Positions 3,139-27,921 of a DNA stretch of 35,427 nucleotides are shown here, one piece after another. The stretch comes from a virus (taxonomy: Duplodnaviria > Caudoviricetes), in the IMG/VR virus record IMGVR_UViG_3300049004_000019, positions 1 to 35,427 of that record; one strand, written 5' to 3'. The translations under genes and the position numbers were made by a program. Position 1 is the stretch's first letter. Each line of letters begins with the position of its first letter. The notes beneath the pieces were generated by a model, which had not been told where the DNA came from, searched no databases, and was given only the letters and a program-made list of their open reading frames with translations.

Positions 3139-3185
3139 CCCCCTTCTTGGAACCTGTCCGTGCCATACTTGCCAAAGTTTGGCAG
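3122..3185. promoter_or_regulatory. Two palindromic operator-like sites (TTGCC-N7-GGCAA consensus) around divergent promoters
   Basis: CTGCCAAAATTTAGCAA (3122-3138) and TTGCCAAAGTTTGGCAG (3169-3185); extended -10 candidate TGcCATACT at 3161-3169 for rightward transcription. Confidence 0.6.
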
Positions 3186-4130
3186 CGTGACAGGACAGGA
3201 CAGAGGAGCACTCGCTATGGGTAGGCACCACGCACACAAGGACAGGCGTCCGGCCGCTGTCCTCGGAGGCATGGCCGTTCTGGCCCTGACCGTCGCCACG
3301 CCGACCTACATCGTCGAAACCGTCCCCGCCGAACCGGCGGTAGGCTCTGTCCGTCCCCTCCTGCAACTTGCCCCCGTTGCCGCCGGAGGACAGGTCAGTG
3401 CGAGCGCCAGCGGACCGACGCACCCGCCCAAGCCCGCACTGACCGCTAGGCCCCGTTCGGCGGGATCGCCCTCCGCGCCCGAACGGGGCCTTTTGCTGTC
3501 CCCGCACCCATCGGCCACACACAGACCCTCGGCCAAGCCGACGCTCAAGCCGACGGCTAGGCCAGTGCCCACGCCCACGCACACCACGCCACCACCGACG
3601 GTCGCGGCGCCCATCGCTCCCCCTGCGCCCACGGCCAGCAAGTCACCCCAACCGACCCACACGAGGTGCTGGTCATGGGAATGAGCCGCAAGGGGGGAAA
3701 GCCGAATCACTCGGAGACCAAGACTCCGGCCGCGCACAACCATCCCAAGCACAAGGTGCACGCGTACTGGCCACCGTGGCTGGCCGGTCCGCTCGTCGTT
3801 GTCCTGGGCAACATCGGCCACGAGGTGTGGGGACAGAGCCTGCCGGCAGCGGGCATTGTGCCGCTTGTCCTTGTCCTGTCCGTCGCTGTCCTGTCCGCGC
3901 TGACCCACCGGTACGCCAGTCCGCGCAACAACGTCCAGCAGTGGCACGCTGTCCTGTCCGTCGCTGTCCTCGGGCTGTCCCTTGTCCTCGTCGAGATGTT
4001 CGGGACAGGACTGTGGCCGCCGGACGCACTCGGACAGGCTGTCCTCTACCTGTCCGCTGTCCTCGCGCTGTCCTGGAACATCCGCCGATTCGAGGTTGTC
4101 CGCGGCGAAGGACAGGACAAGCACGGGACA
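3150..4130. repeat. GGACA/TGTCC pentamer cluster 1
   Basis: About 22 copies in 3800-4130 plus about 8 in 3150-3500 (manual count), including non-coding GGACAGGACA at 3193-3202. Confidence 0.9.
3217..3684 (+). CDS. Pro/Thr/Ala-rich exported or membrane-anchored protein (155 aa)
   Basis: GAGGAG RBS; MGRH-type basic N-terminus, hydrophobic helix, long PT-rich stalk; ATGA overlap with traB. Confidence 0.65.
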   Translation: MGRHHAHKDRRPAAVLGGMAVLALTVATPTYIVETVPAEPAVGSVRPLLQLAPVAAGGQVSASASGPTHPPKPALTARPRSAGSPSAPERGLLLSPHPSATHRPSAKPTLKPTARPVPTPTHTTPPPTVAAPIAPPAPTASKSPQPTHTRCWSWE

Positions 4131-5897
4131 ACCGCCGAAGAGGACTGGCTCGGCCTGAAGAAGCCGCGTTCGATCAAGGTCACCGATTCCGACGGCAAGA
4201 AGACTCAGGCCAAGGTGAAGCTCTCGGCCGGCCAGACCGCCAAGGACGTCGAGGCGGCGCTGAACGCCATGGGATCGAGCCTGGGCACGATCACCAACGG
4301 CGTCCGGGTCGAGAAGGGCAAGCGCGAGGGCGAGGTGGAACTCACCGCGCTCTGGGAGAACCCGCTCACCGACTCGGTCGGATGGGAAGGCCCGGAGTAC
4401 GTGGGCGGCAGCATCTGCGACCCGATCAGTCTCGGCATCAACGAGCAGGGCAAGCACCCGCTACTGCGTATCGGTGGCGACTACAACAAGGGCATCCAGC
4501 CGGGCGCCGTGAAGATCATCGGCATGCCCGGCGCAGGCAAGGGTGTGTGCGCCGTGATCATCCAGGTCAACCTCCGGGGCCGCATCGACCAGTTCCCGGT
4601 GATCAGTGACCACGCCAAGGGCGAGCAGATGCTGGGCATGCTGCGACCCGGGATGCCGAAGGGCAAGGCGTGGATCAACGCGCTCGAACCGGGCGAGTCG
4701 GGTCCGGAGAAGGCGCTGGCCAGGGCTAAGACCCAGGGCCAGGCGGTTCTTCGCGCCATCGCGGCGCGGAACAAGGCGCTCGGCGATGGCGGATTCTCCT
4801 CCTGGCGGCCGGAGGCGTTCACCAAGGGCTTCATGTGGCGTGGGCAGCACATCAAGATGCCCGCGATCGTCTACCACGTCGAGGAGTTCTCCAAGGTCGG
4901 CACGGTCAGCCCGGACCTGTTCACCACCATCGGCGAGCAGGGCCGCTCAGCGGGCGTGTTCCTGGTGGTCAGTGCCCAGCGCGCCAGCCACGACCGCTTT
5001 CCCACCAGCCTGCGGAGCCTGATCCCCAACGGCATCTGCTACGGCGCTTTCGACGATACGGACGTCGGATTCGCCCTGCCCGACGGTGCGACCGCAGGTG
5101 GCGCCAGCCCGGCCGAATGGCAGACCAAGTACCCCGGCAGGGCCATGGCCAGCCTGAATGGTGCCGAGGAGGGCATGGAGCGCATCCCCTGGAAGACCCA
5201 CTACGCCGCGTCGGTGGAGGAGTTCGAGTCCTACGTCAAGGAGGTCATGGCCTACCTGTTGCCGCTGGCCCCCGACCTGGACCCTTGCACGGCGGAGGCG
5301 TTCGGCCAGCCCTACGCCGACTACCTGAGCGGCACTGTCACGAAGACGCCGGCCAAGCCCGCGACGGCGGCGGCCGGCGGGGACGACGACTACGAGGGCG
5401 AGGAAGAGATGGACGAGGACGGAACACCAGAAGACCTCAACGAGGAAGGGGACGAGATGGACGAGGAAGACCCGAACGAGGCTGAGTACGTCAAGCCCAC
5501 TGCGCCTCCCGGTTGCGACGCCAGCAACGTCGACCCTCGCCAGGGCCTGGCCGACTACACCGGACCGGCCTACGACCTGACGCCTCCGCCGAGCCTGGGC
5601 CGACAGGGCCGGGTGCTCAGTCCCACCGAGAAGCGGGTGCGCTTCCGCGAGATCCTGCAGCGCCTGGCCGACGAGGGCCGCACCGAGGTGCGCACTGGCG
5701 AGCTGGTGGCCATCTGGACCGAAGAGCTGGGCCACCCGGAGGTGAACAAGACTCCGGAGGTCGGCCGGCTGATCAACGAGGCCGCCGCCGATGATCTGGT
5801 GGACGGCAAGCCCAACGACCTGATGGGCTGCCTCGATCGTCCGCCGAACAGTCGCGGGCGCTTCCGGATCGTGCTGCGTCCCCGGGTGAACGCGTGA
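3681..5897 (+). CDS. traB: TraB-like FtsK/SpoIIIE-family conjugative dsDNA translocase (738 aa)
   Basis: Four N-terminal hydrophobic helices, Walker A GMPGAGKG, Walker B YHVEE, GRSAGV-x4-SAQR motif, acidic linker and winged-helix-like C-terminus: the architecture of actinomycete plasmid TraB. Confidence 0.8.
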   Translation: MSRKGGKPNHSETKTPAAHNHPKHKVHAYWPPWLAGPLVVVLGNIGHEVWGQSLPAAGIVPLVLVLSVAVLSALTHRYASPRNNVQQWHAVLSVAVLGLSLVLVEMFGTGLWPPDALGQAVLYLSAVLALSWNIRRFEVVRGEGQDKHGTTAEEDWLGLKKPRSIKVTDSDGKKTQAKVKLSAGQTAKDVEAALNAMGSSLGTITNGVRVEKGKREGEVELTALWENPLTDSVGWEGPEYVGGSICDPISLGINEQGKHPLLRIGGDYNKGIQPGAVKIIGMPGAGKGVCAVIIQVNLRGRIDQFPVISDHAKGEQMLGMLRPGMPKGKAWINALEPGESGPEKALARAKTQGQAVLRAIAARNKALGDGGFSSWRPEAFTKGFMWRGQHIKMPAIVYHVEEFSKVGTVSPDLFTTIGEQGRSAGVFLVVSAQRASHDRFPTSLRSLIPNGICYGAFDDTDVGFALPDGATAGGASPAEWQTKYPGRAMASLNGAEEGMERIPWKTHYAASVEEFESYVKEVMAYLLPLAPDLDPCTAEAFGQPYADYLSGTVTKTPAKPATAAAGGDDDYEGEEEMDEDGTPEDLNEEGDEMDEEDPNEAEYVKPTAPPGCDASNVDPRQGLADYTGPAYDLTPPPSLGRQGRVLSPTEKRVRFREILQRLADEGRTEVRTGELVAIWTEELGHPEVNKTPEVGRLINEAAADDLVDGKPNDLMGCLDRPPNSRGRFRIVLRPRVNA

Positions 5898-6103
5898 CCG
5901 CCCGGGAGGCGGCCATCGTCATGGCCTACACCGAGGTCGCGATAGGGGACTTCGCGACCTTCCACGCCTACGCACAAGAGAAGCTCGGTCGCTGGATCCG
6001 GGTCCACGAGTTCGCCAACCGGGCCGTGATAGACGAGCTGAAGCGGGCGTGCTACGACGACTTCCTCGCGCTCAGTCATGAGGCCGCGCGTGACGCTGCG
6101 TAG
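5894..6103 (+). CDS. Conserved small phage hypothetical protein (69 aa)
   Basis: GTGA overlap with traB; AYT...F..FH.Y....LGR....HE pattern. Confidence 0.75.
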   Translation: MTAREAAIVMAYTEVAIGDFATFHAYAQEKLGRWIRVHEFANRAVIDELKRACYDDFLALSHEAARDAA

Positions 6104-6107
6104 CGCA

Positions 6108-6205
6108 TTGCCCAGCTGGGCACCCAGCGCGTCCCGTCTGGTTCCCCTTAGGGGATTTTCCGGTTGCCCAGCGTGGGCAACCGTTTGGGGCCCCACGTGG
6201 GCAAC
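6108..6205. promoter_or_regulatory. Cluster of palindromes upstream of the TraA-like gene
   Basis: TGCCCAGCTGGGCA (6109-6122), TCCCCT-T-AGGGGA (6143-6155), CGGTTGCCCA-GCG-TGGGCAACCG (6161-6183), CCCACGTGGG (6192-6201). Confidence 0.7.
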
Positions 6206-6225
6206 ACAAGGAGTGAGCAACTGAC

Positions 6226-6564
6226 ATGGCGCATCCCGCGACTACTGGTGACATCTACACCCCCGACGGGCTGAAGGCCTACCTTGACCGCCAGCGCGCC
6301 CATGCCTTGGCCGGCTCCGACGGCTACCACGCGATGGCGTGGGAGCTGCGTCGTGCCGTCGAGCGGATGGGCAACAACTCGCGGTTCTTCGGGGGGACTC
6401 AAACCAAGTTCGCCGCCCGGCGTCTGACCCGTCCGCTCTTCCATGCGGCGGCGCTCGCCGAGGACCAGGCGAAGATGTTCGCGCTGGTCTGGGCCATCCA
6501 CAACGGCATCTTCGTGCCCCAGGCCGAGGCCAGCGGTGCCAACGTCTACAAGCCGAATGGGTGA
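6226..6564 (+). CDS. Small helical protein resembling actinomycete plasmid transfer accessory protein (TraA-like)
   Basis: AAGGAG RBS; ARRLTRPL..AA pattern; position next to traB. Family call is tentative. Confidence 0.55.
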   Translation: MAHPATTGDIYTPDGLKAYLDRQRAHALAGSDGYHAMAWELRRAVERMGNNSRFFGGTQTKFAARRLTRPLFHAAALAEDQAKMFALVWAIHNGIFVPQAEASGANVYKPNG

Positions 6565-6847
6565 CGATCTGCGGGAGACGATGCTCCAGGCCGCGGCGGC
6601 GCGCTACGGCCAGGAGCATTATCGCGGCCTGCTCTTCTGGCGCGGTATGCGGAAGGCCTGGCCCTTTCTCCTGCTGGTGATCGTCGTTGGCCTGCTGGGC
6701 TGGGCGCTCAAGCCGACCGTTCACGCTGCCTCCGCCCACGGCGCCATCGCGGTGCCGTGGGTCGGGGGCGGCCTCGTGCTGGCCATGGCCGCCTTCCTGG
6801 CCTACCGCCGGCTCCGTAGTCCCTACCGCCGTCGGAGGTTCCGGTGA
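6557..6847 (+). CDS. Two-TM membrane protein (96 aa), possible spread (Spd)-like protein
   Basis: ATG at 6557 overlaps the upstream gene end; two hydrophobic helices and an Arg-rich tail. Confidence 0.65.
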   Translation: MGDDLRETMLQAAAARYGQEHYRGLLFWRGMRKAWPFLLLVIVVGLLGWALKPTVHAASAHGAIAVPWVGGGLVLAMAAFLAYRRLRSPYRRRRFR

Positions 6848-7089
6848 ACGCTGACTACTGCGACCGGTGCGGTTCAGGCATCCTGCCCTCGCCACCCGCC
6901 GAGCATTACGGAAGGTTCTTCGGCTTGGAGTCCAGCGAGGAGATGCGCAGCAAAAACGGCCCGTGGTCAACCGAGGGTCTTCCTGCGGGGCTGGGGCTTC
7001 CGGGAACGCTGGTTGGACGCAAATCAGCGTTCATGCACATTTGCGAGGCCTGCTACGCCTCGCTCGTCCGCTGGCTGGCGACGCCGTGA
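6844..7089 (+). CDS. Zn-finger-like hypothetical protein (81 aa)
   Basis: GTGA overlap; CDRC...CEAC. Confidence 0.7.
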   Translation: MNADYCDRCGSGILPSPPAEHYGRFFGLESSEEMRSKNGPWSTEGLPAGLGLPGTLVGRKSAFMHICEACYASLVRWLATP

Positions 7090-7223
7090 TGATCACGCCC
7101 CGCCGGTTCCGGCGTCAGAAGTGCCCGCGCTGTGGCCTGATCACCCGCGTGACCAGCAAGTACAACGTCTGCACGCCGTGCGTGGTCTACCTCGAATGGC
7201 ACCGACCGGAGGTGGTCCGATGA
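7089..7223 (+). CDS. Small Zn-ribbon-like protein (44 aa)
   Basis: TGATG overlap; CPRC...CTPC. Confidence 0.55.
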   Translation: MITPRRFRRQKCPRCGLITRVTSKYNVCTPCVVYLEWHRPEVVR

Positions 7224-7450
7224 TCAAGGTCTCTCATGCGGACGGCTCGGCAGAGTTTCTCGCCGTGGCTCTCGCGGACCTCGCCAGCGCCATACGCAGC
7301 AGCACCACGCCGGCCAGCGTGGTCTACGACCTGCAAGTCACCTTCGCCTGGGAGCGTCCGAACCCCTCCATGCCCATCGTCAAGACGGCCGTGGGAGCGC
7401 AAAGCGTCGTAGTGGCCGACCTGGGTAACGAGTTGGAGATCCTGCTGTGA
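7220..7450 (+). CDS. Hypothetical protein (76 aa, MIKVSHADG...)
   Basis: GGAGGTGG RBS, ATGA overlap. Confidence 0.7.
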   Translation: MIKVSHADGSAEFLAVALADLASAIRSSTTPASVVYDLQVTFAWERPNPSMPIVKTAVGAQSVVVADLGNELEILL

Positions 7451-7917
7451 CCCGCATCGGGAACTGGTTCCGCGCGCTGACAACGGCGCCCGCGATACCA
7501 GCGCCGAAGAAGACCGCCGAAGAGGCCGCATGGGAGGCAATCGCCAACCGGTGCCCGTCGATCTATCGGGACGCCACGCGCGACTTCCGTTGCATGGTGC
7601 CTCACGGTTCCGGCGGTCGTTCCCATAGCAACCCGGAGTTGCCCTGGGCTTGGAGCGAACCACCAACTGGCGGCGACTTCTGGGCACGGCGCCCGGGGTC
7701 GAAGATCGTGCCGGGCGCCTGGTACCACGAGTGGGAGCGGGTCACGCCGGACGTCGACAACATCGCCGATGACGGCTCGAACTGGCCAACACGCGGGCTC
7801 CGGTGCGCGCAGTGCGGCGAGGTCCGGGAGCACGTGTACATGCAGCCTGGGCAGGTATCTCCGTACGGCCGAGGGGCCTGGCCCGGCCGCTGCCCTGGTC
7901 CGCAGGACGACCGATGA
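7447..7917 (+). CDS. Hypothetical protein (156 aa)
   Basis: GTGA overlap, GGAG RBS; Cys/His motifs (CAQC). Confidence 0.65.
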   Translation: MTRIGNWFRALTTAPAIPAPKKTAEEAAWEAIANRCPSIYRDATRDFRCMVPHGSGGRSHSNPELPWAWSEPPTGGDFWARRPGSKIVPGAWYHEWERVTPDVDNIADDGSNWPTRGLRCAQCGEVREHVYMQPGQVSPYGRGAWPGRCPGPQDDR

Positions 7918-8411
7918 CCCGCATCGGGCACCACCTGCTCGGCGGAACGTGCGGGCTCGCGCTCGCCGCGGTGGCCAGCCTCCCGGCCTTCGAGGCGGTT
8001 GCCGTGGCCATCATCGCCGCCGTGGTGGCTCCATGGCCCGACGTCGACCAGCGCAAATGGTGGCGGGACTCGCTCGGGGAGTTCAAGGCGCTCCGGCACC
8101 GGAGACTTACCCATTGGTGGGGAGTACCGGCAGCCTTTCTGCCGTTGCTCTTCTGGCTACACGGCCCGCTGGCCTGGCTGCTGGGCGCCGCCCTGACCGG
8201 CTGGTTCTCCCACCTCGCCGGCGATTGGGTGTTCGGCAAGCGCGGGCCGGCGGTCACCGGATGGCGTCGGGCCGGCATCCCGCTCGCTCCCTGGTGGGGC
8301 TACCACGGCCTGGGCCTGAAGTGCGGCGGCAAGGCGGAGAAGTACTGCGCGTGGCCTGTCCTGGCCGGCGTGCTGGCAGTGCAGGCAGCGTTCCTGACGG
8401 GAGTGGCGTGA
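7914..8411 (+). CDS. YdjM-like membrane-bound metal-dependent hydrolase (165 aa)
   Basis: Motifs GH, PDVD, HRRLTH, SHLAGD with several TM helices; ATGA overlap. Confidence 0.8.
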   Translation: MTRIGHHLLGGTCGLALAAVASLPAFEAVAVAIIAAVVAPWPDVDQRKWWRDSLGEFKALRHRRLTHWWGVPAAFLPLLFWLHGPLAWLLGAALTGWFSHLAGDWVFGKRGPAVTGWRRAGIPLAPWWGYHGLGLKCGGKAEKYCAWPVLAGVLAVQAAFLTGVA

Positions 8412-8680
8412 TGGCCAGACGAATCGACGTCAGCGTCCATGAAATCGCCACTGACGGCCTTCCTCCCCGGGACGGGGACATGGCAGGTCGATACGCCTTC
8501 ATCTTCGACGGGTGCATCGTGTCCGGTTGGCCCTGGTTCGGCGATGAAGGCGATGGGGCGTACGGCGGCTACTGGATCGCCAACTCGGACGTCGGACGCG
8601 TGAACATCAAGTTCTCTGGGGTGACTCACTGGATCGAATTCCCCGAGCCGCTCCACTCGATCGGATCCGGGATGGCGTGA
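8411..8680 (+). CDS. Phage hypothetical protein (89 aa)
   Basis: GGGAG RBS, TGATG overlap; LP...VTHW pattern common in small phage proteins. Confidence 0.7.
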   Translation: MARRIDVSVHEIATDGLPPRDGDMAGRYAFIFDGCIVSGWPWFGDEGDGAYGGYWIANSDVGRVNIKFSGVTHWIEFPEPLHSIGSGMA

Positions 8681-8820
8681 TGGAACTGAACGAAGCCGTC
8701 GAGTGGGTCGAAGGTCTGGCCAAGGACTACGTGCTGCTCAAGCGGGATTGCTCCGTGGGAGAGGCAGAGCGGGTCATGGCCACAACGCAAGAAGCAATCA
8801 GCACGCTTCGGGAAGAGTGA
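8680..8820 (+). CDS. Small hypothetical protein (46 aa, MELNEAVEWVEGLAKDY...)
   Basis: TGATG overlap; fills the gap; below the ORF-track cutoff, translated manually. Confidence 0.6.
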   Translation: MELNEAVEWVEGLAKDYVLLKRDCSVGEAERVMATTQEAISTLREE

Positions 8821-8834
8821 AGGAAGTGGATACC

Positions 8835-9074
8835 GTGACGTCGGATGCACCGGCCAGGCTCAGCCGCCCGGACGCCGCAAGGTACTTGGGCCTCTCCATC
8901 GGCACCCTCAGGAACTACGACCGTGAGGGCAAGCTGGTGGCCGAACGAGACAAGCACGGCCAGTGGTGGTATCCACTGGCCATGCTTGATGACTTCGCTA
9001 ACCACAACGTCCTGCTGTGCTCGGACGGTGAGCGGGCGGCATCACCGGGAGGCGAGCCTCGTCCTCAGGGCTAA
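8835..9074 (+). CDS. MerR/excisionase-like HTH DNA-binding protein (79 aa)
   Basis: LSRPDAARYLGLSIGTLRNYDREGKL...G.WWY; AAGGAAG upstream; start could be GTG 8826. Confidence 0.75.
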   Translation: MTSDAPARLSRPDAARYLGLSIGTLRNYDREGKLVAERDKHGQWWYPLAMLDDFANHNVLLCSDGERAASPGGEPRPQG

Positions 9075-9225
9075 GCGGAATCGTGTAGCGGGGGTAGTCC
9101 GTTCCGGCCACTCGGTACGTCAGCGTCCGCTCGTCTGCGGGTCCGTCAACGCTCAGGATCTCCAGCCCCCATTCCGCCGCCGTGCGGGGCTGGAGAGCCC
9201 ACCCTGGGATTCCGAGACCTTTCAT
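8998..9225 (-). CDS. Hypothetical protein (75 aa)
   Basis: ATGA overlap with the DUF2637 stop, but overlaps the convergent HTH gene by 77 bp. Confidence 0.4.
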   Translation of the reverse strand: MKGLGIPGWALQPRTAAEWGLEILSVDGPADERTLTYRVAGTDYPRYTIPLSPEDEARLPVMPPAHRPSTAGRCG

Positions 9226-10064
9226 GATCGAGCCGCTTTCAGTTGTCGGGTCAGGGCCGCTGCCTCGTTCGTGTTGATCGTGTAGCCCTCCTTCCTCAGC
9301 GCTTCGACCAACGAGCCCCGGCTCAGCTTGTCCCCGAGTTCGGCAGCAATCCGGGTGGCAGCGGACAGCCGGGCTTCGTTGTCCTTGGGGACAGCCGTCG
9401 GGCGGACAGGCTTCGGTGGTAGCGGGCGGACAAAGCCGTTTGTCCTCGGCTTGTCCTCGGGGACAGCGGACAGGACAGGCTTAGGAACCTCGGACAGGAC
9501 AGCGGGCTTCGGGCGGACAGGTTCGCGGACAGCCTCAGCGGACGGGACAGCTGGCTTGTCGGCTGTCCGCGAAGGACGGGACAGGACAAAGGTCGCCACG
9601 ATCATGGCGCCGTCGATCGCCAGCGGGTAGAGGACAGCGGACTGCTTGGACTCCCCGTAGCTTCGCGCCAACGCCGAGATGTGGTCGTAGCTGATGGCGA
9701 AGCAGAGCACGGCGACGGCGCCTGTGGTGACCCTGATCCACCAGCGGCCGTCGACAGCGGCCACGTGGAAGGCGATAAAGAGCAGCACCGGGATCACCGC
9801 GCTGAGCGCCTTGGCTCCGGGGTTGGAGTGCGCGTGCGCGTAGTTCGCGGCCACGGTCGCCAGCGTCCCCGCCGTCAGAAGCAGGTAGGCCATCGCCCGA
9901 CCGCCCGCCGAGGACGGCCCGCGCGGCAGGTGCCACGCCGGCAGCTTCAACCGAGGGATCGTGATCCGCCACCGCGCCATCACCGTGACCGCGCGCCAGA
10001 TCCCCCACTCGGCCAGGAAGGCCAGTGCGGCGAGGGTGGCCGCGAACGCGACGTCCCGGATCAT
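9222..10064 (-). CDS. DUF2637/SpdA-like membrane protein with Pro-rich linker and C-terminal HTH-like domain (280 aa)
   Basis: AN..HA, AISYDHI..LA..YGE and YPLAIDG motifs; about five TM helices; C-terminal LSRGSLVEALRKEGYTINTNEAAAL; ATGA overlap at 10064. Confidence 0.8.
   Translation of the reverse strand: MIRDVAFAATLAALAFLAEWGIWRAVTVMARWRITIPRLKLPAWHLPRGPSSAGGRAMAYLLLTAGTLATVAANYAHAHSNPGAKALSAVIPVLLFIAFHVAAVDGRWWIRVTTGAVAVLCFAISYDHISALARSYGESKQSAVLYPLAIDGAMIVATFVLSRPSRTADKPAVPSAEAVREPVRPKPAVLSEVPKPVLSAVPEDKPRTNGFVRPLPPKPVRPTAVPKDNEARLSAATRIAAELGDKLSRGSLVEALRKEGYTINTNEAAALTRQLKAARS
9325..9640. repeat. GGACA/TGTCC pentamer cluster 2
   Basis: About 20 copies in ~310 bp (manual count), inside the linker-coding part of the DUF2637 gene. 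Confidence 0.9.
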
Positions 10065-10486
10065 GACGGCCTCACTGGACCACCGTCGAGATGGCATCCG
10101 CCCTGCGAGCACGCTTCAGGGTCGGGGCAGCCCAAGCATCGCGCCCTCATGGCCTCGGACTCTGGCGCCACGAATGACGGGCATTCGGTGCGTGAGTGGC
10201 CAAGCGGCTCACGCATGCAGCCGCACTGGTCGGTGGCTTCCTCGTAGGCCGCCGTGCGCTCTTGCAGTCCGTAGTCGTCGCAGAGCGGGCACGCCCGACG
10301 ATGCGCGCCTGCTCTGTTGCGGATGCACCCGCATTCCTCGTACTCGACCTGCGCTGTATTCAGAGGAGGGATCACCGTGTAGCCCAGCTCCCGCAGAGCC
10401 GCCGCATACTCGTCCGCCTTGCGGGTGAGGAACTTTAGGCGCCGAGCCTCGGTGGCCTTGGCGGTACGTGCCTGCGTCTCGCTCAT
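10061..10486 (-). CDS. Cys/His-rich hypothetical protein (141 aa, MSETQARTAK...)
   Basis: ATGA overlap; two CGC-x6/7-H-x3/4-CP repeats. Confidence 0.65.
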   Translation of the reverse strand: MSETQARTAKATEARRLKFLTRKADEYAAALRELGYTVIPPLNTAQVEYEECGCIRNRAGAHRRACPLCDDYGLQERTAAYEEATDQCGCMREPLGHSRTECPSFVAPESEAMRARCLGCPDPEACSQGGCHLDGGPVRPS

Positions 10487-10635
10487 GACTTGCGCCCGCC
10501 CTTCCCGCCGTTGCCCTTCCCGCCGTTGCCCCCATTGCCCTTCTCGTTCTTGTCGACGACCTTCTCGACAGACTGCCGAGCCTGCTCCCGGTCCTGCTTC
10601 GGGGTCTGCCGGTGCTTGCCCTTGTCGTCCGCCAT
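10483..10635 (-). CDS. Small basic Gly-rich protein (50 aa, MADDKGKHRQTPKQD...GNGGKGNGGKGGRKS)
   Basis: GGAAGG RBS; stop overlaps the next ATG; translated manually. Confidence 0.6.
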   Translation of the reverse strand: MADDKGKHRQTPKQDREQARQSVEKVVDKNEKGNGGNGGKGNGGKGGRKS

Positions 10636-10984: not shown

Positions 10985-10991
10985 GCCAAGA

Positions 10992-11024: not shown

Positions 11025-11041
11025 GCCAGGGTTCGGACAGC

Positions 11042-11076: not shown

Positions 11077-11086
11077 AGTGCGGGAC

Positions 11087-13465: not shown

Positions 13466-14293
13466 TCACAGGTGCGCCTCGATCCACGCCACCGCGGTGG
13501 CGAAGTCAGCCTTGAGCCGGTCCAGCCAATCCGGTGCGCCAGGCGAAGGCACGGGGGTCGGAGCCGGAGCGGTCAGCGGCACGGGCACGGTGACGTCCCC
13601 GTCGTGGCTGAGCAGCGTGCCCCAATCGGTGAAGCTGAACTTGAACTCGCCGGCCACGCCCCATCCGGTGCCCCAGGAGTTCCGGGCGAGCACCAGGTCC
13701 TTCTCGGCGTCGAGGCCGTAGACGAGGAACTCGTGGCCACCCTCAAGGCCGGTCAGGCGCTTGGGCAGTTTGACCAGACCGTTGGCGTCGGGCTGGTCGA
13801 ATGCGGCGTACCAGTTGACGCCCGTGATGACGTGCGAGTCGTTGGAGACGGTCGCCAGAGCGTCATCGAGGGAGAACGTGTGGCGGTAGCCGGAGATGAG
13901 TCCGAGGCCCTGCGCCGCCTTGTTGACCGAAACGCCGTCACTTCCGGTATCGGTGGGCGGGTATGTCCCGTTGTACGGGTCCAGCGTGGTGGCCAGGTGG
14001 TAGAGCACGTCCCGCGCGACAGCCTCGGTGGGCTGCAACGACGCCTTGAGAGCGTCCGTGAGCGCCTCGTAGACCTTCCCGGTGTAGACCGAACCCAGCA
14101 TCGCGTTTCCGGTACAGCTCCCGGTCTGCCCCTGGTCCAGTACGGGGTAATGCCGGTCCCAGGTCTTCGACACGAGCGTGGTGCTCGACGGCTGATGCGC
14201 GAACGCCCGGGACTGCGGGTCGTGGTTGACGTGCCGGCCGAGCCCGCCGGGCGCGCCGGGGGACCGCTGGTGTTCAACCTCGTAGTGCGTCAC
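13466..14293 (-). CDS. Papain-like (C1A) cysteine peptidase (275 aa)
   Basis: DQGQTGSCTG (oxyanion Q, catalytic C), GGHE (H), RNSWG..WG..G.F (N); GTG at 14293 with AGGAGG RBS and GTGA overlap. Confidence 0.9.
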   Translation of the reverse strand: MTHYEVEHQRSPGAPGGLGRHVNHDPQSRAFAHQPSSTTLVSKTWDRHYPVLDQGQTGSCTGNAMLGSVYTGKVYEALTDALKASLQPTEAVARDVLYHLATTLDPYNGTYPPTDTGSDGVSVNKAAQGLGLISGYRHTFSLDDALATVSNDSHVITGVNWYAAFDQPDANGLVKLPKRLTGLEGGHEFLVYGLDAEKDLVLARNSWGTGWGVAGEFKFSFTDWGTLLSHDGDVTVPVPLTAPAPTPVPSPGAPDWLDRLKADFATAVAWIEAHL

Positions 14294-22500: not shown

Positions 22501-22824
22501 CATGCTCGTTGCCGACTGCTTGCCGAAGTCGAGCACCGACTGAGTGCTCTTGCCGAACACGACCGCGACCTTGTTCTGTGCCTCAGACACATTCGAGGCG
22601 GCCTCGATCGTCGATTTGAAGAAGCCCGCGATCTGACCGGTAGCCAGCCCCGCGGCGGCGACCCCTGCGGACTTGAGCAGGGAGGAGAACGAGATGCCGA
22701 ACGCCTTGCCGGCCTCCTCGCCCGCCTTCTTGCCCATCGCCGATGCGGGCTTGGCGATGCCGTCCGCATCCAGCCCGCTGGTATCGGGCCGGATGCGGAC
22801 GTACGCGTCAGCGAGCGAGACCAT
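19510..22824 (-). CDS. Tape measure protein with C-terminal lytic transglycosylase (SLT) domain (1104 aa)
   Basis: AYVRIRPD N-terminus, GETEPLRQYG core, periodic W/F repeats, RESGGNPNAIN..DSNA..G.PSQGLMQ. Confidence 0.95.
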   Translation of the reverse strand: MVSLADAYVRIRPDTSGLDADGIAKPASAMGKKAGEEAGKAFGISFSSLLKSAGVAAAGLATGQIAGFFKSTIEAASNVSEAQNKVAVVFGKSTQSVLDFGKQSATSMGLSKASYLDAVGTLGNLFVALKLPGPEAAKMSTNMVKLAGDLASFNNTSPEDALEALRSGLVGETEPLRQYGVNINAATLQTEAMKLGLIDNIKTALTPAQKAQATYALVLDQTKTAQGDFTRTSGGLANQQRILKAQFDDLKSTIGAALLPAFTSLVHIVTERVVPGIKEFISGLQGKNELSEFPSRLNVAGRGVWAFFQAFKDGQVISHGFVGQMEEIGVAARRVVDDIRGIVTVLVNNKDAIIAFVATLGTLKLIIEGVTLAMRAWAIASAVISFVQLAAGVRSFADAWALLDVAMDANPIGIVVIAIAALVAGLVLAWQHSETFRNVVTTAFDAVKGVVLFLWHSVFEPWWQGLVTIFNNIVAGAQQWYAGLQSAFTNVSNAVSAVGNFFQSLWNGIVAVFNGIIGTAHAWYAGLQVVFSAIGAAVQVLAAPFLWLWHTIFEPVFNALAFIVKAWYTIWYDIVLLAIKVIQQDFTLALHAFQALWSTIWNGITAVAKQWWAGVQALWQAAVNFLGGPLSAANNAMHALWTSVWNAIVSVATSTWNGIRNIWNAIVSFLSGPLTSANNAFHSLYQTVWNAIAGVAETIWNKIRGFWQTMSDWVTKTLPDAFRNGVAAISNFWNGLQDKVKAPINFVIGFINRGIINPINDLVGTFGGSKLATIPGLAGGGLIRGPGTGTSDSILGLSAGGVPTARVSDGEFVVNAAQTARHYDLLRAINTPGFATGGLIGGITSGISDMLGALTNPIKWLLDKAGDVGALISQMGGTGFAQMLGGIPRKLIDWAGAWLKDKLTSAIDISGVSGNLAGWITAAMQITGVPASWFGPLTVLIGRESGGNPNAINLTDSNAAAGHPSQGLMQTIPSTFEAYRDPRLPDVITNPIANIVAGINYILSRYGSIFNVQQANPSLPPKGYANGGVIGEPIWGVGKSGRRYTFGENGPETVTPGVGGLGGGLNLTINVSGDVGDKQVAAIRAHVDDAFGKLLMQMKTGRRR

Positions 22825-22826
22825 GC

Positions 22827-23270
22827 CTACCTCTTCCTGCCGAGGCCCAGGGCCAGGCGTCGCTCGTCTTCAGGGGTCAGGTCATCGGGTGAATCCACGT
22901 CGGCATAGAGGAACGCGGTGAACTGCTCCATCGCGGCGTCGACGTCGGGGAGCAGGTCGGTGTCCCACTCCTCGGCGCGGGCCATCCGGGCGGAGATCAC
23001 CCGGCGTTCGACCAAGGTGCGCTCCACCAACTCGTCGGTCCAGATGGCCTCGGCCGCGTCGCAGACCTCGGCCAGCGTCAGCCGGCTGCTCGCTGCTTCG
23101 CCGCCTCCGCCACCACCAGCGCCAGCTCCGGCCGGCCAGCCATCGCCTCGATCTGCCGCCGGTCCGCCGCGGCCAACGGTGAGACCACGGTGTCCGGCAA
23201 GGAGGAGACGTCCGGAGAGGTAACCACGGTGCGAGGCTGCCCATCCGAGGAGTCGGAGGGCAGCGCCGTA
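22827..23270 (-). CDS. Tail assembly chaperone, -1 frameshift extension (gpGT-like; fused product ~249 aa)
   Basis: The -1 frame is open from the CGCCCTAC site (23275-23268) to 22827 and reads PYGAALRLLGWAA...LTLAEVCDAAEAIW. Confidence 0.7.
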   Translation of the reverse strand, partial: YGAALRLLGWAASHRGYLSGRLLLAGHRGLTVGRGGPAADRGDGWPAGAGAGGGGGGEAASSRLTLAEVCDAAEAIWTDELVERTLVERRVISARMARAEEWDTDLLPDVDAAMEQFTAFLYADVDSPDDLTPEDERRLALGLGRKR

Positions 23271-23575
23271 GGGCGCTGCGCCGCGTTCTCCACGATGGCC
23301 TTCATGACGGTCATGAGGTCGCGGGAGTCCTGGCCGTTGTCCAAGGCGCCCTGCCAGAACGCCTCGAAGTCCGCCGGGTCGATGACCAACCGCATCTGCC
23401 GCTTGAGGAAGCCCATCGCCTCCGGACTGTCCTCGTCGATGCTCGCGGCCTGCTCCGCGAAGTCCATGAGCACGATGTCCGTGAGTTGCGGGTGGACGTG
23501 GACCTCCGTACCGAACCAGCCGAAGGAGTCGCTGACCTTTTCCTTGACCCTGCCCAGGTCGCCAAGATTCGCCAT
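23078..23575 (-). CDS. Tail assembly chaperone (gpG-like, 165 aa)
   Basis: TGATG overlap with the major tail stop; between major tail and tape measure; RPT..PSDSSDG motif. Confidence 0.8.
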   Translation of the reverse strand: MANLGDLGRVKEKVSDSFGWFGTEVHVHPQLTDIVLMDFAEQAASIDEDSPEAMGFLKRQMRLVIDPADFEAFWQGALDNGQDSRDLMTVMKAIVENAAQRPTALPSDSSDGQPRTVVTSPDVSSLPDTVVSPLAAADRRQIEAMAGRPELALVVAEAAKQRAAG

Positions 23576-24156
23576 CAGATGCGCGCCTGACCGGAGACCC
23601 ACATGATCCAGGGATAGGTGGGCGAGACCGGGATCTCGAAGTTGAATTCCGCCGGGATGAGCGCGACGTTGGGCGCCTTGGCGAACTTCGACTTGATCGA
23701 GCCGGAGGAGATCGTCTGGAACATGACCATGCGCATGGTCCCGTCCAGCGACTCCCACCCGATCATGGCCCGGACCTCGGCGCCCGGGACCGGCGGCGTG
23801 AGGCTGGTCAGCTGCGTGGTGGTCGTGCCGGAGACGACCGTGTACGCGCCGCCGTTGAGGGCGTACTTGTAGTTGGTCAGCGCGAAGTTCTGCATCGCGA
23901 ACGCGATCGAGCCGGACCGGTCGGTGGTGAAGTACTTGATCGGGTCGAAGAACTCGGCCGCCTTGACCGGCTCCACCTTGATCTCGTAGTTGAACTCCGA
24001 GCCGTCGTCGGTGGCTCCGAGGCTCAGCCACGCGACCGGCCAGGAGTCGGTGAACTTCGAGCCGGTCACCGTGTTGGACGGAAGCGTGCTGGAGAGCGGA
24101 GCCCAGAACAGGTAGCCGGCGTCATTGAGCAATGACGGCGCAAGGGTAGCGGGCAT
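23575..24156 (-). CDS. Major tail protein (193 aa)
   Basis: AG.LFWAP....P, W..LGATDDG.EF.Y motifs; AAGGAG RBS; position. Confidence 0.85.
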   Translation of the reverse strand: MPATLAPSLLNDAGYLFWAPLSSTLPSNTVTGSKFTDSWPVAWLSLGATDDGSEFNYEIKVEPVKAAEFFDPIKYFTTDRSGSIAFAMQNFALTNYKYALNGGAYTVVSGTTTTQLTSLTPPVPGAEVRAMIGWESLDGTMRMVMFQTISSGSIKSKFAKAPNVALIPAEFNFEIPVSPTYPWIMWVSGQARI

Positions 24157-24157
24157 G

Positions 24158-24496
24158 TCAGGACTCCTTGGTGTTCTGCTTCGCCGCGGCCTTGGCCGGA
24201 GCGTCCTGCGTCACCTTGATCGCGACACCGGGCTCGGTGCGCGAGAGGACCTCGTTATTGGGGATCGGGCACTCCGGCTGACCCGGCAACTGCGGAGGGC
24301 AGTAGTGCCGGGCGTTGACGACCGAAAGGTCCTTGGGGTCGACGTTGCTGGCCGGAATGGGGTGGCCGACGTCGTAGGCGAGAGCACCACCACCGGCGAT
24401 GAAAACCTGCTCGCCGGCGACGTAGGTGCCGTACTCGGCGATCTGCTCGGCACGGCGAGCTTCCATCGCGGCGAACGGGTCAACGGGCGTAGTCAT
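24158..24496 (-). CDS. Hypothetical protein (112 aa, MTTPVDPF...)
   Basis: GGAGG RBS; directly upstream of the major tail gene. Confidence 0.7.
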   Translation of the reverse strand: MTTPVDPFAAMEARRAEQIAEYGTYVAGEQVFIAGGGALAYDVGHPIPASNVDPKDLSVVNARHYCPPQLPGQPECPIPNNEVLSRTEPGVAIKVTQDAPAKAAAKQNTKES

Positions 24497-24497
24497 G

Positions 24498-24580
24498 AAA
24501 AAAGACCTCCAAGGCAATGCGCGACGGGACTTCCGGGAACTGCGTCTTGCGGGTCACGCGTCGCTTGCCTTGCAGGTCTT
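24498..24580 (-). promoter_or_regulatory. Long hairpin with U-tract that pairs the RBS of 24158..24496 (terminator or attenuator candidate)
   Basis: AAGACCTGCAAGGCAAGCGACG ... CGTCGC(GCA)TTGCCTTGGAGGTCTT-TTTT-CATG on the minus strand. Confidence 0.6.
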
Positions 24581-24793
24581 GCCTGCCGACATCGTACGAC
24601 CGTGATGCGTGTGGGGATAGTGGGACCCGCACCAGGAGCATTTGCGCCCGTCGTGCAGACCGATCCAGTGACGGACCACGCGGGAGCGCCGGTAGATCTG
24701 GAACCAGACGGCGTACCGCCAGTCCGGCGGATCGTGTTCATCGCCGCTCCATGGGCAGGGGATTCCTAGCGCCGTCGTCCTGCTCTCGTTCAT
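24554..24793 (-). CDS. Small hypothetical protein (79 aa)
   Basis: ATGA overlap with the upstream stop; CSWC motif. Confidence 0.5.
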   Translation of the reverse strand: MNESRTTALGIPCPWSGDEHDPPDWRYAVWFQIYRRSRVVRHWIGLHDGRKCSWCGSHYPHTHHGRTMSAGKTCKASDA

Positions 24794-25257
24794 CCGCCCA
24801 CGCTCCCGAGGCCCTTGCGCATGTAGCCCTTGTTGCGGCCCTTCTGGTTCTGGATGCGGCCGTAGTACGCGGCCTGGCTGGTGGCCACCTTCCGGCGCTT
24901 GCCCTTCTGGAGCGGGCCGATGATCGCGGTCTTGCCCTGCGCGGCCTTGGACTTGGCGCGCGTGGTCACGTCGGCGTAGGGGCCCTCGGAGTCCTGGGAC
25001 AGGAAGGTCCCGATGCGGGAGCGGAGGTAGCCGGGCGGCCGACCGTGGTTGCCCTTGGCGCTCACCGGGGCGGCGGCCTTGTCTGCCCGCTCGACCCGCT
25101 TGGCGTTCTTGTAGACGAACTTCCCGACCGGCGAGTTCTTGGTCGCCTTCAGCGCGTCGAGCGCGGCCTGATCCACGACGACCTTGACCGTGACGCGCGT
25201 ACCGTCCCGCGCGGTGGTCGTGAAGTTCTGAGTGAACTTGCCGCTGGCCCCTACCAC
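24790..25257 (-). CDS. Neck / tail-completion protein (HK97 gp10-like, 155 aa)
   Basis: Basic protein with A...APV...G.LRSRI motif; position in the head-tail module. Confidence 0.7.
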   Translation of the reverse strand: MVGASGKFTQNFTTTARDGTRVTVKVVVDQAALDALKATKNSPVGKFVYKNAKRVERADKAAAPVSAKGNHGRPPGYLRSRIGTFLSQDSEGPYADVTTRAKSKAAQGKTAIIGPLQKGKRRKVATSQAAYYGRIQNQKGRNKGYMRKGLGSVGG

Positions 25258-25727
25258 AGGACTGCGCTCGTCACTTGGATCTCGAAGGAGACCTGGGCGT
25301 AGGCGCCGTCCTCGATCTGGTCGATGACCCAGGAGAAGCCACCGATCTCGGCCAGGCCGGGCGGCTGGATCGCGCCCTTCAGCGTGCGGTCAGCCCGCAC
25401 AGCCGCCGTGATCACGTCGTAGACCGCCGCGGTATCGGTCATCTTGGTGCGCAGATCGTCGGAGTCCCCGTCCCACGTCTGGATGAAGCAGGTGATCGCG
25501 TAGTCCTCCATCGGCGTGCCCTCGCCGCCGTAGCGCGAGGTGCTGCCCTGGATCGCGGACTGGTCCTCGTCCTCGGAGTAACCCACCACCACGAACGTGC
25601 GCGGCGGATCGGTGACCGGCATCGGGCCGTAGTAGACCGTGACGTCCGGCTTGGCCGAGGACAGCGCCGAGGACACCAAGTCGTACGCGCCGTTAATCGC
25701 CGCCGGGATGCTCGTCGAGCCGGCCAT
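25251..25727 (-). CDS. Tail terminator / head-tail joining protein (158 aa)
   Basis: Acidic alpha/beta protein, V..GP and A.RADRTL.G motifs; TGATG overlap. Confidence 0.7.
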   Translation of the reverse strand: MAGSTSIPAAINGAYDLVSSALSSAKPDVTVYYGPMPVTDPPRTFVVVGYSEDEDQSAIQGSTSRYGGEGTPMEDYAITCFIQTWDGDSDDLRTKMTDTAAVYDVITAAVRADRTLKGAIQPPGLAEIGGFSWVIDQIEDGAYAQVSFEIQVTSAVLW

Positions 25728-26566
25728 CAGAAGATCACCGGCCGCTTCGGGCCGAGCAGCTCCCGCACCCGGTTGGGCAGCGAGAAGCCCAAGCCGACCG
25801 TGGCCACGTCATCCTCAGGTCCGGTCCCGCGCACCCGCCGGTTGCGCCCCTGCTGGGTGTTGCGCCAGAGGTGCGCGGTCAGTTCGAGGTAGGCCAGCCG
25901 GATGTTCGGCGGAATCGCGCCGGCCACCCCGGCGACGTAGGTGACGCTGGCGTCCGTGCCAATGAACGGGATCGGGTAGCCGCCGTTGATCCGCTCGACA
26001 ATGCCGCTGTCCCCGTAGAGCCGGTAGTCGGTGGAGGCCAGCGCAACCGGGACGCTGCCGCCCTGCCAGAGCCCCACCGAGGTCACGCTGAGGACCGGAG
26101 CGCGGGTCAGCGCGAGATGGCACGACCAGCGGTCCAGCGGAATCATCTCGGTGTAGGCCGTGGGAACCACGTCGCCCACTTCGCGGGTGATGACCGCTTG
26201 TGCCGCGTCCATGAAGTCCTGGATCTCGACGTCATCAGCGGTGTTCTGCTTGTTCAGGTGCAGCTTCACGTCGGCCAGTGAGGCGATACGCCGGGTGATG
26301 GCGAGCACGTCGAACTGGCCGTCATCCACGCCGATCGCGGCGCCGCTGGCGGTCCAGAGGTAGAGGTAGGTCCCGGCCTGCGTGGTCGGGACGTTGCACG
26401 AGTAGGCGCCGGTTCCGCTGTGCGTGATCGTCAGGCCGACGCCGGAGACCAACGTGCTGCCGTCCGGCCGGGTGACGACCAAGCTCATGGTGGCGTCGGT
26501 CGGGGCGCCGAGTGTGTCGGTGACCGCGGTCGTGAGAATGACCTGCTGGCCGAGCGTGTAGCTCAT
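25727..26566 (-). CDS. Head-tail adaptor with an extra N-terminal Ig-like domain (279 aa)
   Basis: SLADVKLHL...DD..I...AA, V.YVAG...IPP.I..A...L.AHLW motifs; N-terminal VTRPDG...GTGAY...AGTY.Y.W domain. Confidence 0.8.
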   Translation of the reverse strand: MSYTLGQQVILTTAVTDTLGAPTDATMSLVVTRPDGSTLVSGVGLTITHSGTGAYSCNVPTTQAGTYLYLWTASGAAIGVDDGQFDVLAITRRIASLADVKLHLNKQNTADDVEIQDFMDAAQAVITREVGDVVPTAYTEMIPLDRWSCHLALTRAPVLSVTSVGLWQGGSVPVALASTDYRLYGDSGIVERINGGYPIPFIGTDASVTYVAGVAGAIPPNIRLAYLELTAHLWRNTQQGRNRRVRGTGPEDDVATVGLGFSLPNRVRELLGPKRPVIF

Positions 26567-27921
26567 CTCATGCCTCCCGGGGATGACGTGGCGGAGACGA
26601 GCGTGCCTCTCGACCGATGTGCGGAGGACAGGACAGCGGACGACCGCCCCGTGGTGGTCAGGACAACGGACGGGATGTTGACCCCCGGCTGAGTCCCGGT
26701 CGCGGACAGGACAGTGCTTGCGGACAGGACAGCGGACGCGCGGACAACCAGCGTCGGGACAGCGGACAGGACACCAGCGCCGGACAGGACAGCGAGAGCC
26801 TGCTGGCGCGCCAGCGCGGACAGAGTGCTCGTCGCGGACAGCGATGCGGTACCGCCAGCGGACACGGTGCCCGTCGCGGTCATTGCTCCGGCGCCCGCCA
26901 GAACGGCCGTACCGGAGACGGCCACGATGCCGGCCGCACTCAGGGCGCCCGCACCGGCCAGCGTGGAACCGGAGCCCGTACGGGCTGCCGCACTGAGAAC
27001 GCCGGCACCGGTCAGCACGGAGGTCGCCGCCTGGGCGGCCGACGCACTCAGCGACCCGGCTCCCGCGAGGCTTCCGCCGGCCCCCTGTCCGGCCAGTGCG
27101 GCGAGCGCGCTAGAAGCGGCCAGGGTCGCGATGCCCGCCTGGTTGCCGCCCGCCGTGGCGAACAGCACCCCGGCGCCGACCATGGCGGCCGAAGCGCCCT
27201 GCGTCTCGGTCGCGGCCAGCGAACCAGCGCCCGCCAGGGCGGCCAGGCCGGCGAACACTCCGGAGGCGGAGAACGCGCCCGCGCCCGTCAGGGTCGAACC
27301 GGCGCCCTGTCGCACGGCGCCGGAGAGCGCTCCCGTCGCGGCCATCGCGCTCGACCCGGTGATCGCGCCACCGGCAGTCAGCGACCCGGCACCCGCCATG
27401 CTCGCCACGCCCGGCGTCGTCCCGGCGCTCGACGCGCTCAAGGCGCCCGCGCCCGCCATCGTGGCGCTGGCCGGTTGGGTAGCGGTAGCCGCCAGCGTGC
27501 TCGTGCCGGCCATCGTGGCCGCCGCGCGGATGGTCTGCGTTCCGGCGGCGGACAGGACACCCGCGCCGACCATCGCGGCCGTAGCGGCCTCGGTCACCAG
27601 GGCGGACAGGACACCCGCGCCGGACAGGACAGCCGCTCCGCTGACAACCTGCAGGGCTGTCGCGGACAGAGTGCCCGCTCCGGACAGGGTGGCCGTACCG
27701 GCGGCGACGACTGTCCCGGTGGCGGACAGCGCGCCAGCGCCCGCCGCAGTGGCGGTTACCGCCTGAATGGCAGGAGCGGACAGGACACCCGCGCCCGCCA
27801 TCGTGGCCACGCCGGGAACCCGTACTGCCGCCGCCGCAGTCAGCGCACCGGCACCGACCATCGTGGCCGTGCCGTTGACGGTGCTGGCTACGGTCTGCGG
27901 AGGCAGTACGGGAAATGGCAT
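26563..27921 (-). CDS. Ala/Gly/Thr-rich beta-repeat virion fibre-like protein (452 aa)
   Basis: ATG at 27921 (MPFPVLPP), 4 nt after the upstream stop; more than 20 imperfect (M/L)xGAGxLSA repeats. Confidence 0.7.
   Translation of the reverse strand: MPFPVLPPQTVASTVNGTATMVGAGALTAAAAVRVPGVATMAGAGVLSAPAIQAVTATAAGAGALSATGTVVAAGTATLSGAGTLSATALQVVSGAAVLSGAGVLSALVTEAATAAMVGAGVLSAAGTQTIRAAATMAGTSTLAATATQPASATMAGAGALSASSAGTTPGVASMAGAGSLTAGGAITGSSAMAATGALSGAVRQGAGSTLTGAGAFSASGVFAGLAALAGAGSLAATETQGASAAMVGAGVLFATAGGNQAGIATLAASSALAALAGQGAGGSLAGAGSLSASAAQAATSVLTGAGVLSAAARTGSGSTLAGAGALSAAGIVAVSGTAVLAGAGAMTATGTVSAGGTASLSATSTLSALARQQALAVLSGAGVLSAVPTLVVRASAVLSASTVLSATGTQPGVNIPSVVLTTTGRSSAVLSSAHRSRGTLVSATSSPGGMR
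26624..26866. repeat. GGACA pentamer cluster 3
   Basis: About 16 copies in ~240 bp, all GGACA on the plus strand (manual count). Confidence 0.9.
27548..27790. repeat. GGACA pentamer cluster 4
   Basis: About 12 copies in ~240 bp (manual count). Confidence 0.9.

Follow-up and report, generated by a model that had tools for sequence, protein, structure and literature searches.

Short DNA words repeated inside unrelated genes of an actinobacterial phage: candidate binding arrays for an SpdB2-like membrane protein

Five motif patches in a phage record with a transfer module

The stretch of DNA analyzed here (the window) is the complete IMG/VR virus record IMGVR_UViG_3300049004_000019, 35,427 bp long, with 67% GC and an estimated completeness of 41%, from a phage of soil actinobacteria. 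Portal, prohead protease, capsid, tape measure (with an SLT domain) and GH25 lysin genes are found on its minus strand, and the window also carries a Streptomyces-type transfer module made of a TraB-like translocase and a DUF2637 protein. Copies of the pentamer GGACA (TGTCC on the other strand) are crowded into five patches, which we interpret below as probable binding arrays for the DUF2637 protein. The genes that harbor the patches are:

3217-3684, plus strand: small protein from the first transfer-operon gene, its N-terminal stretch hydrophobic and its tail Pro/Thr-rich; a 48% identical open reading frame (ORF) is present in the relative G001
3681-5897, plus strand: TraB-like DNA translocase with N-terminal hydrophobic helices, Walker A motif GMPGAGKG and a C-terminal helical domain
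9222-10064, minus strand: SpdB2-like DUF2637 membrane protein, the proposed reader of the motif (Pfam PF10935 above cut-off; structure model)
26563-27921, minus strand: Ala/Gly-rich repeat protein amid head-tail genes, a putative fibre from its repeats and position

Pfam gave no match for the first and last of these products, nor for the TraB-like protein (FtsK_SpoIIIE included). The TraB-like protein nevertheless matches TraB/FtsK genes of plasmids in 49 records at 24-32% identity (the best, an annotated traB, at E 5e-28), and has the membrane helices, P-loop ATPase and C-terminal helical domain of TraB-type proteins. The patches and a non-coding tandem are arranged as follows:

3155-3501, patch 1: 8 copies, three non-coding (3155, 3193, 3198) and five in ORF 3217-3684; orthologous patch at 13648-13894 in G001
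3193-3202, plus strand: non-coding tandem GGACAGGACA, just 5' of the ribosome-binding site of ORF 3217
3800-4130, patch 2: 22 copies (16 TGTCC, 6 GGACA) in the membrane-helix region of traB
9329-9636, patch 3: 20 copies in the DUF2637 gene, from the linker into the three-helix domain; 17 in the G001 orthologue
26626-26864, plus strand, patch 4: 16 copies, all GGACA; 15 in G001 and 16 in L140
27550-27787, plus strand, patch 5: 12 copies, 11 of them GGACA; 11 in G001

Altogether, the window contains 138 copies, 78 within the 1,484 bp of the patches and 60 across the other 33,943 bp (52.6 versus 1.77 per kb). An earlier note on this DNA, made from the sequence, had counted the copies exactly in all five patches (8, 22, 20, 16 and 12). 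It had also viewed them as marks on the whole genome, a view that does not hold: the 6.5-kb transfer module contains three patches and a single remote gene the other two, with about 17 kb free between. The non-coding tandem is as the note described it, and GGACA copies occur at the equivalent place in three relatives (L007, L001 and L002).

The motif is read in four to five frame and strand combinations in three genes and in four in the fibre gene, where 27 of 29 copies are TGTCC on the coding strand; the claim that unrelated genes carry it in several frames and strands thus stands. Its extended form is V-GGACA-V: G follows in 58 of the 78 patch copies, and T is never found on either side. The commonest 8-mer accounts for 19 of the 78, and the core is 5-6 bp. 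Orientation is mixed (6:16 and 15:5 in two patches), traB being opposite to the other genes. Tandems of 5 bp make up 17 of 73 neighbor gaps, and the proposed spacing of about one helical turn was not detected: a period of 10-11 bp is absent from the same-strand spacings (Rayleigh p 0.57-1), which follow only the codon period of 3/6.

The patches are selected as DNA

Clustering was compared with 5,000 synonymous recodings per patch under two nulls, one based on genome codon usage and the other on shuffling of the host gene's own synonymous codons. The four large patches were never matched by any recoding: the maxima under the two nulls were 9 and 9 in traB (22 seen), 9 and 12 in the DUF2637 gene (20 seen), and 8 and 10 or 6 and 9 in the fibre gene (16 and 12 seen). 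In the coding part of patch 1, the maxima were 4 and 5 (5 seen; p 0.0002 and 0.0014). All ten tests therefore gave p ≤ 0.0014, for patch windows picked after the data had been seen; independently of the windows picked, GGACA is the most clustered of all 5-mers (21 in 300 bp). Codon shuffling, whose success would have spoken against the earlier note, does not reproduce the clustering.

In codon alignments of traB between the window and three relatives, four-fold sites are identical in 79 of 93 cases within motifs and in 378 of 679 elsewhere. For C-ending codons alone the figures are 37/37 and 249/343, and rare A/T-ending codons within motifs are likewise kept. When C- and G-ending codons only are considered, two of the three pairs, which are non-independent, are significant (p 0.0006 and 0.004; third pair, 0.13). 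In the fibre gene, Leu-Ser is written CTGTCC in 14/14 cases inside the patches and in 0/5 between them, a difference that is partly circular as the motif defines the patches; in 13 other genes the figure is 6/33. The 55-kb relative G001 has all five patches in orthologous genes, even though its fibre protein is only about 52% identical, and the traB patch is also present in L001 and L002. In L005, which has another distant TraB, two GGACA copies lie in the region matching the traB patch.

Since silent sites within the motif are kept in relatives, selection acts on the DNA, as the earlier note had supposed. Peptide or codon bias is ruled out as the cause by the recoding null together with silent-site conservation. 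The GGACA patches are a real, selected DNA-level signal inside genes.

A related element, represented by L003, L008 and L009, has a TraB that is 38% identical and no GGACA patch. Instead, it carries two TCCGG patches elsewhere, in the traB linker and in a small ORF after traA (24 copies) whose orthologue in the window lacks GGACA. Hence, the motif switches between related elements, as had been anticipated. At 11430-11580 of L009, the traB linker is a near-perfect tandem of the TCCGG word, read as PVSS/PVSD/PVSG repeats.

Elements that share the motif, and elements that do not

A motif-only scan of IMG/VR yielded 105 stretches; flanks were taken for 80, and 104 loci were analyzed, a patch being defined as at least 8 copies per 250 bp. 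No patch was found in 32 loci, one in 54, and two or more in 18. The latter represent about nine contigs. G001 is one of them, seven more combine an SpdB2-like gene with an adjacent FtsK/TraB gene, and L070 is unrelated. Among single-patch loci, only L140 (a fibre orthologue) was examined further. Upstream of spdB2, several GGACA elements carry arrays in non-coding DNA, among them pure (GCTGTCCTGTCC)n tandems. In four GGACA contigs, three examined whole and one over 60.0 of its 61.7 kb, the large patches all lie in the transfer module, with one 8-copy cluster apart. No match to the capsid family PF05065 was found in five other GGACA elements, so that their phage nature is taken from IMG/VR only. 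A 108-kb, 44%-GC phage contig found by a TraB profile (L148, 7687-11458) has GGACA patches in its DUF2637-like gene, and its TraB-like gene occupies two ORFs. Overall, GGACA is common to at least two unrelated SpdB2-like families and to elements of 44-69% GC.

A protein search with the second GGACA-associated SpdB2-like family gave 29 loci without selection on the motif, although the motif scan had already brought up seven of the eight that carry GGACA. Helix 3 and the patch word sort together as follows, the counts being non-independent events as the loci are related: D[STN]xxK with GGACA (8 loci), DS[IV]RR with CCGGA(C) (4), ATAKRY with GCTCA (2), TTAQRW with GGACAC (1), STAYRR with a degenerate GGTNNA (10), and ETVARY with no clear patch (4). 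One TraB family accompanies three of the patch motifs. The association was also examined in trans in 26 of the 29 loci (three near-duplicates were dropped), using the word GGTYSA learned from the spdB2 linkers of the STAYRR group. Inside traB, this word peaks at 8-11 copies per 300 bp in 7/7 STAYRR loci that have traB. Where the same TraB family is combined with another SpdB2 helix (four loci), the peaks are 2, 2, 2 and 6.

Streptomyces plasmids provided a further set, made of 17 of the 27 records that match the DUF2637 protein of pWTY27. The scan recovers the published clt words 3' of traB (CCGCACA in pJV1, TGACACC in pWTY27), and the clt of pSN22 too. In 14 of the 17 loci, pJV1, pSN22 and pWTY27 included, a hexamer patch differing from the clt word is found inside spdB2, and plasmid patches are confined to this gene. 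The hexamer is read in at least two frames or strands in 13 of the 14 loci, and in one in L040. Word and SpdB2 helix again pair: GTGAGC with S[STA]GWVA (5), GTGAAC with S[ILV]GWVS (7), and GCGAAC with SVAWVSD (2). Among six plasmids that share one TraB type and the TGACACC clt, some carry GCGAAC and others GTGAAC; three GTGAAC plasmids have unrelated transfer genes, as assigned from annotation. The in-gene motif of plasmids therefore sorts with the C-terminal helix pair of SpdB2, not with TraB.

Other observations were made in these searches. In pSN22 (L021, 5361-6444), the spdB2-like gene is split into two ORFs in different frames, and the GTGAGC patch spans both. In an Amycolatopsis plasmid (L023; 1459, 25376 and 38306), ACGTCC forms two remote clusters and GGAATTCC one, all of them outside the spdB2-like gene. 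A GGGGAC cluster of phage TurkishDelight, in a Pro-rich linker, was not counted; no TraB lies within 7 kb of it.

The earlier note had proposed to test whether related elements carry another motif co-varying with a recognition helix, and had named two candidate readers. Co-variation holds for the SpdB2/DUF2637 helix in two related families; for TraB it does not.

TraB and the locus at the clt position

Published clt loci map to the end of traB (PMC3583192), and TraB proteins bind clustered repeats (PMC4447253, PMC3583192). In the window, this position is occupied by a different signal:

6106-6205: non-coding repeat locus at the clt position, with TTGCCCA/TGGGCAA pairs around a CCCTTAGGGG core; GGACA absent

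Core and layout are retained in four relatives. In L004 and L001, the arms become TTATCCA/TGGATAA and the TraB helix is RF[IL]AD versus RLIN (L001 is cut by the contig end). From its position, 6106-6205 is a candidate TraB site; it may alternatively contain an operator or RNA hairpins. In the window and G001, a 69-aa ORF (5894-6103) separates traB from this locus; the ORF is absent from L001 and L004, where the locus is directly 3' of traB. The clt of the pWTY27 type has a CCCCTAGG centre similar to the CCCTTAGGGG core.

The patches occupy the 5' region of traB and three further genes rather than a single locus at or after the 3' end of traB. Furthermore, TraB and patch motif repeatedly dissociate. 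L001 has the other TraB helix and another post-traB word, yet keeps a GGACA patch; L109 has GGACA patches, none of them strong in traB, and a different CTGACA cluster 3' of traB. Nor does the word follow the TraB helix in the six TGACACC plasmids or in the phage TraB family mentioned above. The GGACA patches are thus probably not the clt of TraB, and the suggestion that TraB reads them as a dispersed clt is not supported.

The DUF2637 protein of the window

The match of the 9222-10064 product to PF10935 (29.3 bits; cut-off, 22.8) is partial and covers profile positions 9-53. Its structure model consists of five long helices, a low-confidence linker (163-228) and a three-helix domain (229-279), which corresponds to the following feature:

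9225-9401, minus strand: three-helix domain resembling a helix-turn-helix (HTH), residues 222-280; local model confidence (pLDDT) 92-95; no beta-wing in the model

The nearest folds of this domain are homeodomain, Fur and ArgR (Z 5.8-6.5, root-mean-square deviation 2.5-2.6, 52-59 residues aligned). The best match, a homeodomain, has Z 6.5 (deviation 2.5, 56 aligned); none reaches Z 8, and all are below the trust level of the tool. With the full model, Foldseek found nothing at E ≤ 0.001, and the ESM Atlas contained no match above 0.79. A profile search for distant members of the family returned the same 25 proteins only. Among them Arg249 is invariant, Thr265 and Arg273 are nearly so, and the linkers keep motif-compatible peptides. 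In cultured phages, no relative of either TraB or the DUF2637 protein was found among 50,697 records; a first viral scan with a single TraB query had no match.

Other features of the record

The transfer region contains additional elements:

3120-3186: two operator-like inverted repeats of the TGCCAAA..TTTGGCA type upstream of the transfer operon, kept in L007, L001 and L002; the operator role is presumed
6226-6564, plus strand: small protein 3' of the clt-position locus, with 32-41% identical ORFs in G001 and G003; from its position it may be TraA-like
8826-9074, plus strand: MerR/HTH_17-type small DNA-binding protein (Pfam PF00376, E 4e-8), a candidate rival reader

The inverted repeats are a signal distinct from the GGACA patches, and no sigma-70-type promoter was found at 3000-3300. 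The segment 11092-11118 (minus strand) resembles the T-arm and 3' end of a tRNA and is possibly an attP core; ARAGORN detected no tRNA gene in the window, and the same 11-mer is absent from G001. In the virion region, genes 27926-29668 and 13466-14293 encode an SGNH/GDSL hydrolase domain and, next to the lysin, a papain-like domain. In G001 (contig C1, 47-178 and 1631-1817), the gene region 1826-3247 is flanked by CGGACAT and GGTGGACA repeats that form small clusters in non-coding DNA and may be replication iterons rather than SpdB2 sites.

Interpretation and alternatives

With moderate confidence, we propose that the patches are binding arrays for the phage's own SpdB2-like DUF2637 membrane HTH protein, used for spreading or stability; binding is a prediction. 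As far as sequence comparison can tell, the signal is most likely a cis site of SpdB2-type proteins rather than a dispersed clt, and analogy, together with the exclusion of TraB, makes the DUF2637 protein of the window the likely reader of GGACA. Such a protein would tether the DNA of the element to the membrane or cross-wall, and the tethered DNA would spread through the host filament or be kept in it. An oligomer in the membrane, its numerous small HTH domains carried on long linkers, might bind each single 5-6 bp word weakly but a whole array strongly. Binding of many weak sites by an oligomer would explain the dense, unphased arrays of mixed orientation. The patches would be placed where proteins tolerate them (membrane helices, linkers and Ala/Gly repeats), those of the fibre gene providing a second grip about 17 kb away, while TraB would use the separate locus 6106-6205.

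Several observations weigh against this proposal. SpdB2 of pSVH1 has been reported as a nonspecific DNA binder (PMC4447253, PMC4170104); an assay on DNA without the array could, however, give a result that reads as nonspecific. The spdB2 patch is absent from 3 of the 17 plasmid loci, the spdB2-like gene of the TCCGG relative has 5 copies and no patch, and the gp25 genes of phages phiC31, phiBT1, TG1 and Heather (4 of 16 records matched) lack comparable patches and show weak Pro-Glu repeats only; no comparable patch was found in phage SF3 either. The fold match of the C-terminal domain is at the level of a generic three-helix domain. Across the 25 proteins of the window family, helix 3 starts with TNE, TQA, TGA, SQA or TTD, and the two members for which DNA is available (TNEAAAL in the window, TQAAADL in G001) share GGACA despite their different helices. 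Neither of the two GGACA-associated HTH families is detected by a profile of the other, and GGACA would have to be convergent because the window-family helix is unlike that of the other GGACA family. The reciprocal trans comparison is weak (GCTCA has 4 and 2 copies in traB of its two loci), and CCGGAC, with 7 and 5 copies, is likewise weakly represented in traB genes of the four loci with another SpdB2 helix. Lastly, motif and helix mostly reside in one gene, so that linkage and kinship inflate the co-variation, which is given as plain counts of loci.

The existence of the patches admits other explanations. One is that they are dispersed clt-like loading sites read by the C-terminal domain of TraB. 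We consider this unlikely, even if patches lie in and beside traB in most elements, TraB proteins do bind clustered repeats, and the TCCGG relative has traB patches and none in its spdB2-like gene: the separate repeat locus changes with the TraB helix, L001 and L109 uncouple TraB from GGACA, one TraB family goes with three patch motifs, and copies within a patch face both ways, with traB opposed to the other genes. A slightly smaller chance may be given to the idea that the same SpdB2-like reader acts mainly in gene control, the arrays serving as operators or roadblocks that hold down one late gene and the toxic genes for transfer and spread. The copies adjoining the ribosome-binding site at 3193-3202, the dense non-coding arrays upstream of spdB2 in other GGACA elements, and the regulatory role suggested for RepAM binding within its own gene (PMC2440964) would fit. 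A separate operator-like repeat is, however, already present at 3120-3186, and a membrane-anchored protein and patches deep in a virion gene suit tethering better.

The reader might also be another phage protein, either the MerR/Xis-like HTH protein 8826-9074 or the product of a gene outside the 41%-complete contig. The MerR-like gene adjoins the DUF2637 gene, and G001, where all five patches occur, has a 72% identical counterpart; moreover, the DUF2637 helix varies in this clade. Head-to-tail binders of the MerR/Xis type are expected to use phased sites; none are seen, and the gene was not found in G002, G004, G006 and G009 (three other GGACA elements and the TCCGG element; contigs 66-72% complete), so that we regard this explanation as improbable. 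The same low probability applies to a host reader, such as a septal translocase or nucleoid-associated protein, on whose word unrelated elements would have converged. Within a single host genus, at least six different words are in use among plasmids and phages, and they sort with helices that the elements encode, which argues against a host word; the sharing of GGACA by unrelated SpdB2-like families over 44-69% GC and the existence of a Streptomyces nucleoid protein with a short word, Gbn (PMC9239103), argue for it. Finally, the patches might be by-products of slippage, gene conversion or peptide repeats, without DNA function. Codon-period spacing, the location of some patches in low-complexity regions and the abundance of single-patch loci (54 of 104 in the motif scan) are in line with this idea. 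It is nonetheless very improbable, and already largely refuted by the recoding null and silent-site conservation, which extends to rare A/T-ending codons; in addition, the same word appears in four unrelated genes, in several frames and in non-coding DNA.

If binding arrays for SpdB2-like proteins are indeed what the patches are, a broader picture can be drawn, to which we give somewhat less than an even chance. SpdB2/DUF2637 proteins would be sequence-specific self-recognition tethers across actinomycete plasmids and phages, with private words of 5-7 bp in dozens of in-gene copies, all rewritten when the helix changes. A septal pore would thus pick its own DNA, adding to TraB/clt a second layer of specificity that was overlooked in long-studied plasmids. 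In the clade of the window, the system would reach a remote virion gene and allow a genome of 55 kb or more to spread without lysis.

The patches bear on the way in which plasmids pass through septa following Streptomyces conjugation (pock formation): they offer a candidate cis site, with a word predicted for each of several laboratory plasmids (GTGAGC in pJV1 and pSN22, GCGAAC in pWTY27). The same kind of signal is present in long-studied plasmids. At least eight helix/word pairs form a natural series, and the patches are a plain example of protein sequence being overwritten by a DNA code. In practical terms, codon optimization or trimming of spd and tra genes in vectors could delete such sites unnoticed.

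Comparison with known systems

In the full-text literature covered, which takes in few subscription journals, no description of in-gene motif arrays linked to SpdB2 was found; an earlier mention of these repeats, for instance as peptide repeats, is possible.

Like the patches, clt loci with their TraB recognition sequences are clustered, short, element-specific repeats, read in the case of clt by an HTH-type domain of a membrane protein, and a TraB-like gene is present in the window as in TraB/clt systems. However, clt is one mostly non-coding locus right after traB with direct repeats of 7-9 bp in a common orientation, whereas the patches are made of 5-6 bp words in several genes, are mixed in orientation and dissociate from TraB type.

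In the SpdA/sps system of pIJ101, an Spd protein binds a site in its own coding region and affects plasmid stability, SpdA2 being described as binding inside its own gene (PMC4170104). There, sps is a conserved palindrome in few copies, common to several plasmids. The window differs in having 12-22 copies per patch of a non-palindromic, element-specific word tied to a DUF2637 gene. RepAM of pMEA300 is likewise a protein of an actinomycete element that binds multiple repeats within its own gene; in contrast, it is a replication initiator that uses 8-bp repeats in a hairpin origin, without membrane anchor or remote patches (PMC2440964).

The closest likeness is with SpdB2 of pSVH1 and its homologues in pJV1, pSN22 and pWTY27. 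SpdB2 of pSVH1 is a membrane protein that oligomerizes, forms pores and interacts with TraB; intramycelial spreading depends on it, and homologues exist on some actinophages (PMC4447253); a stabilizing effect has been reported for spdB2 of SLP2 (PMC4170104). In the papers covered, SpdB2 is presented as a nonspecific binder and no element-specific site is described. SpdB2 and the window protein share membrane helices, a linker and a C-terminal helical domain, and both are encoded together with a TraB. The window protein lacks the long coiled coil and has a divergent helix 3. Plasmid spdB2 genes carry the same kind of in-gene patch as the DUF2637 gene of the window, where, unlike in the plasmids, patches also reach traB and a virion gene.

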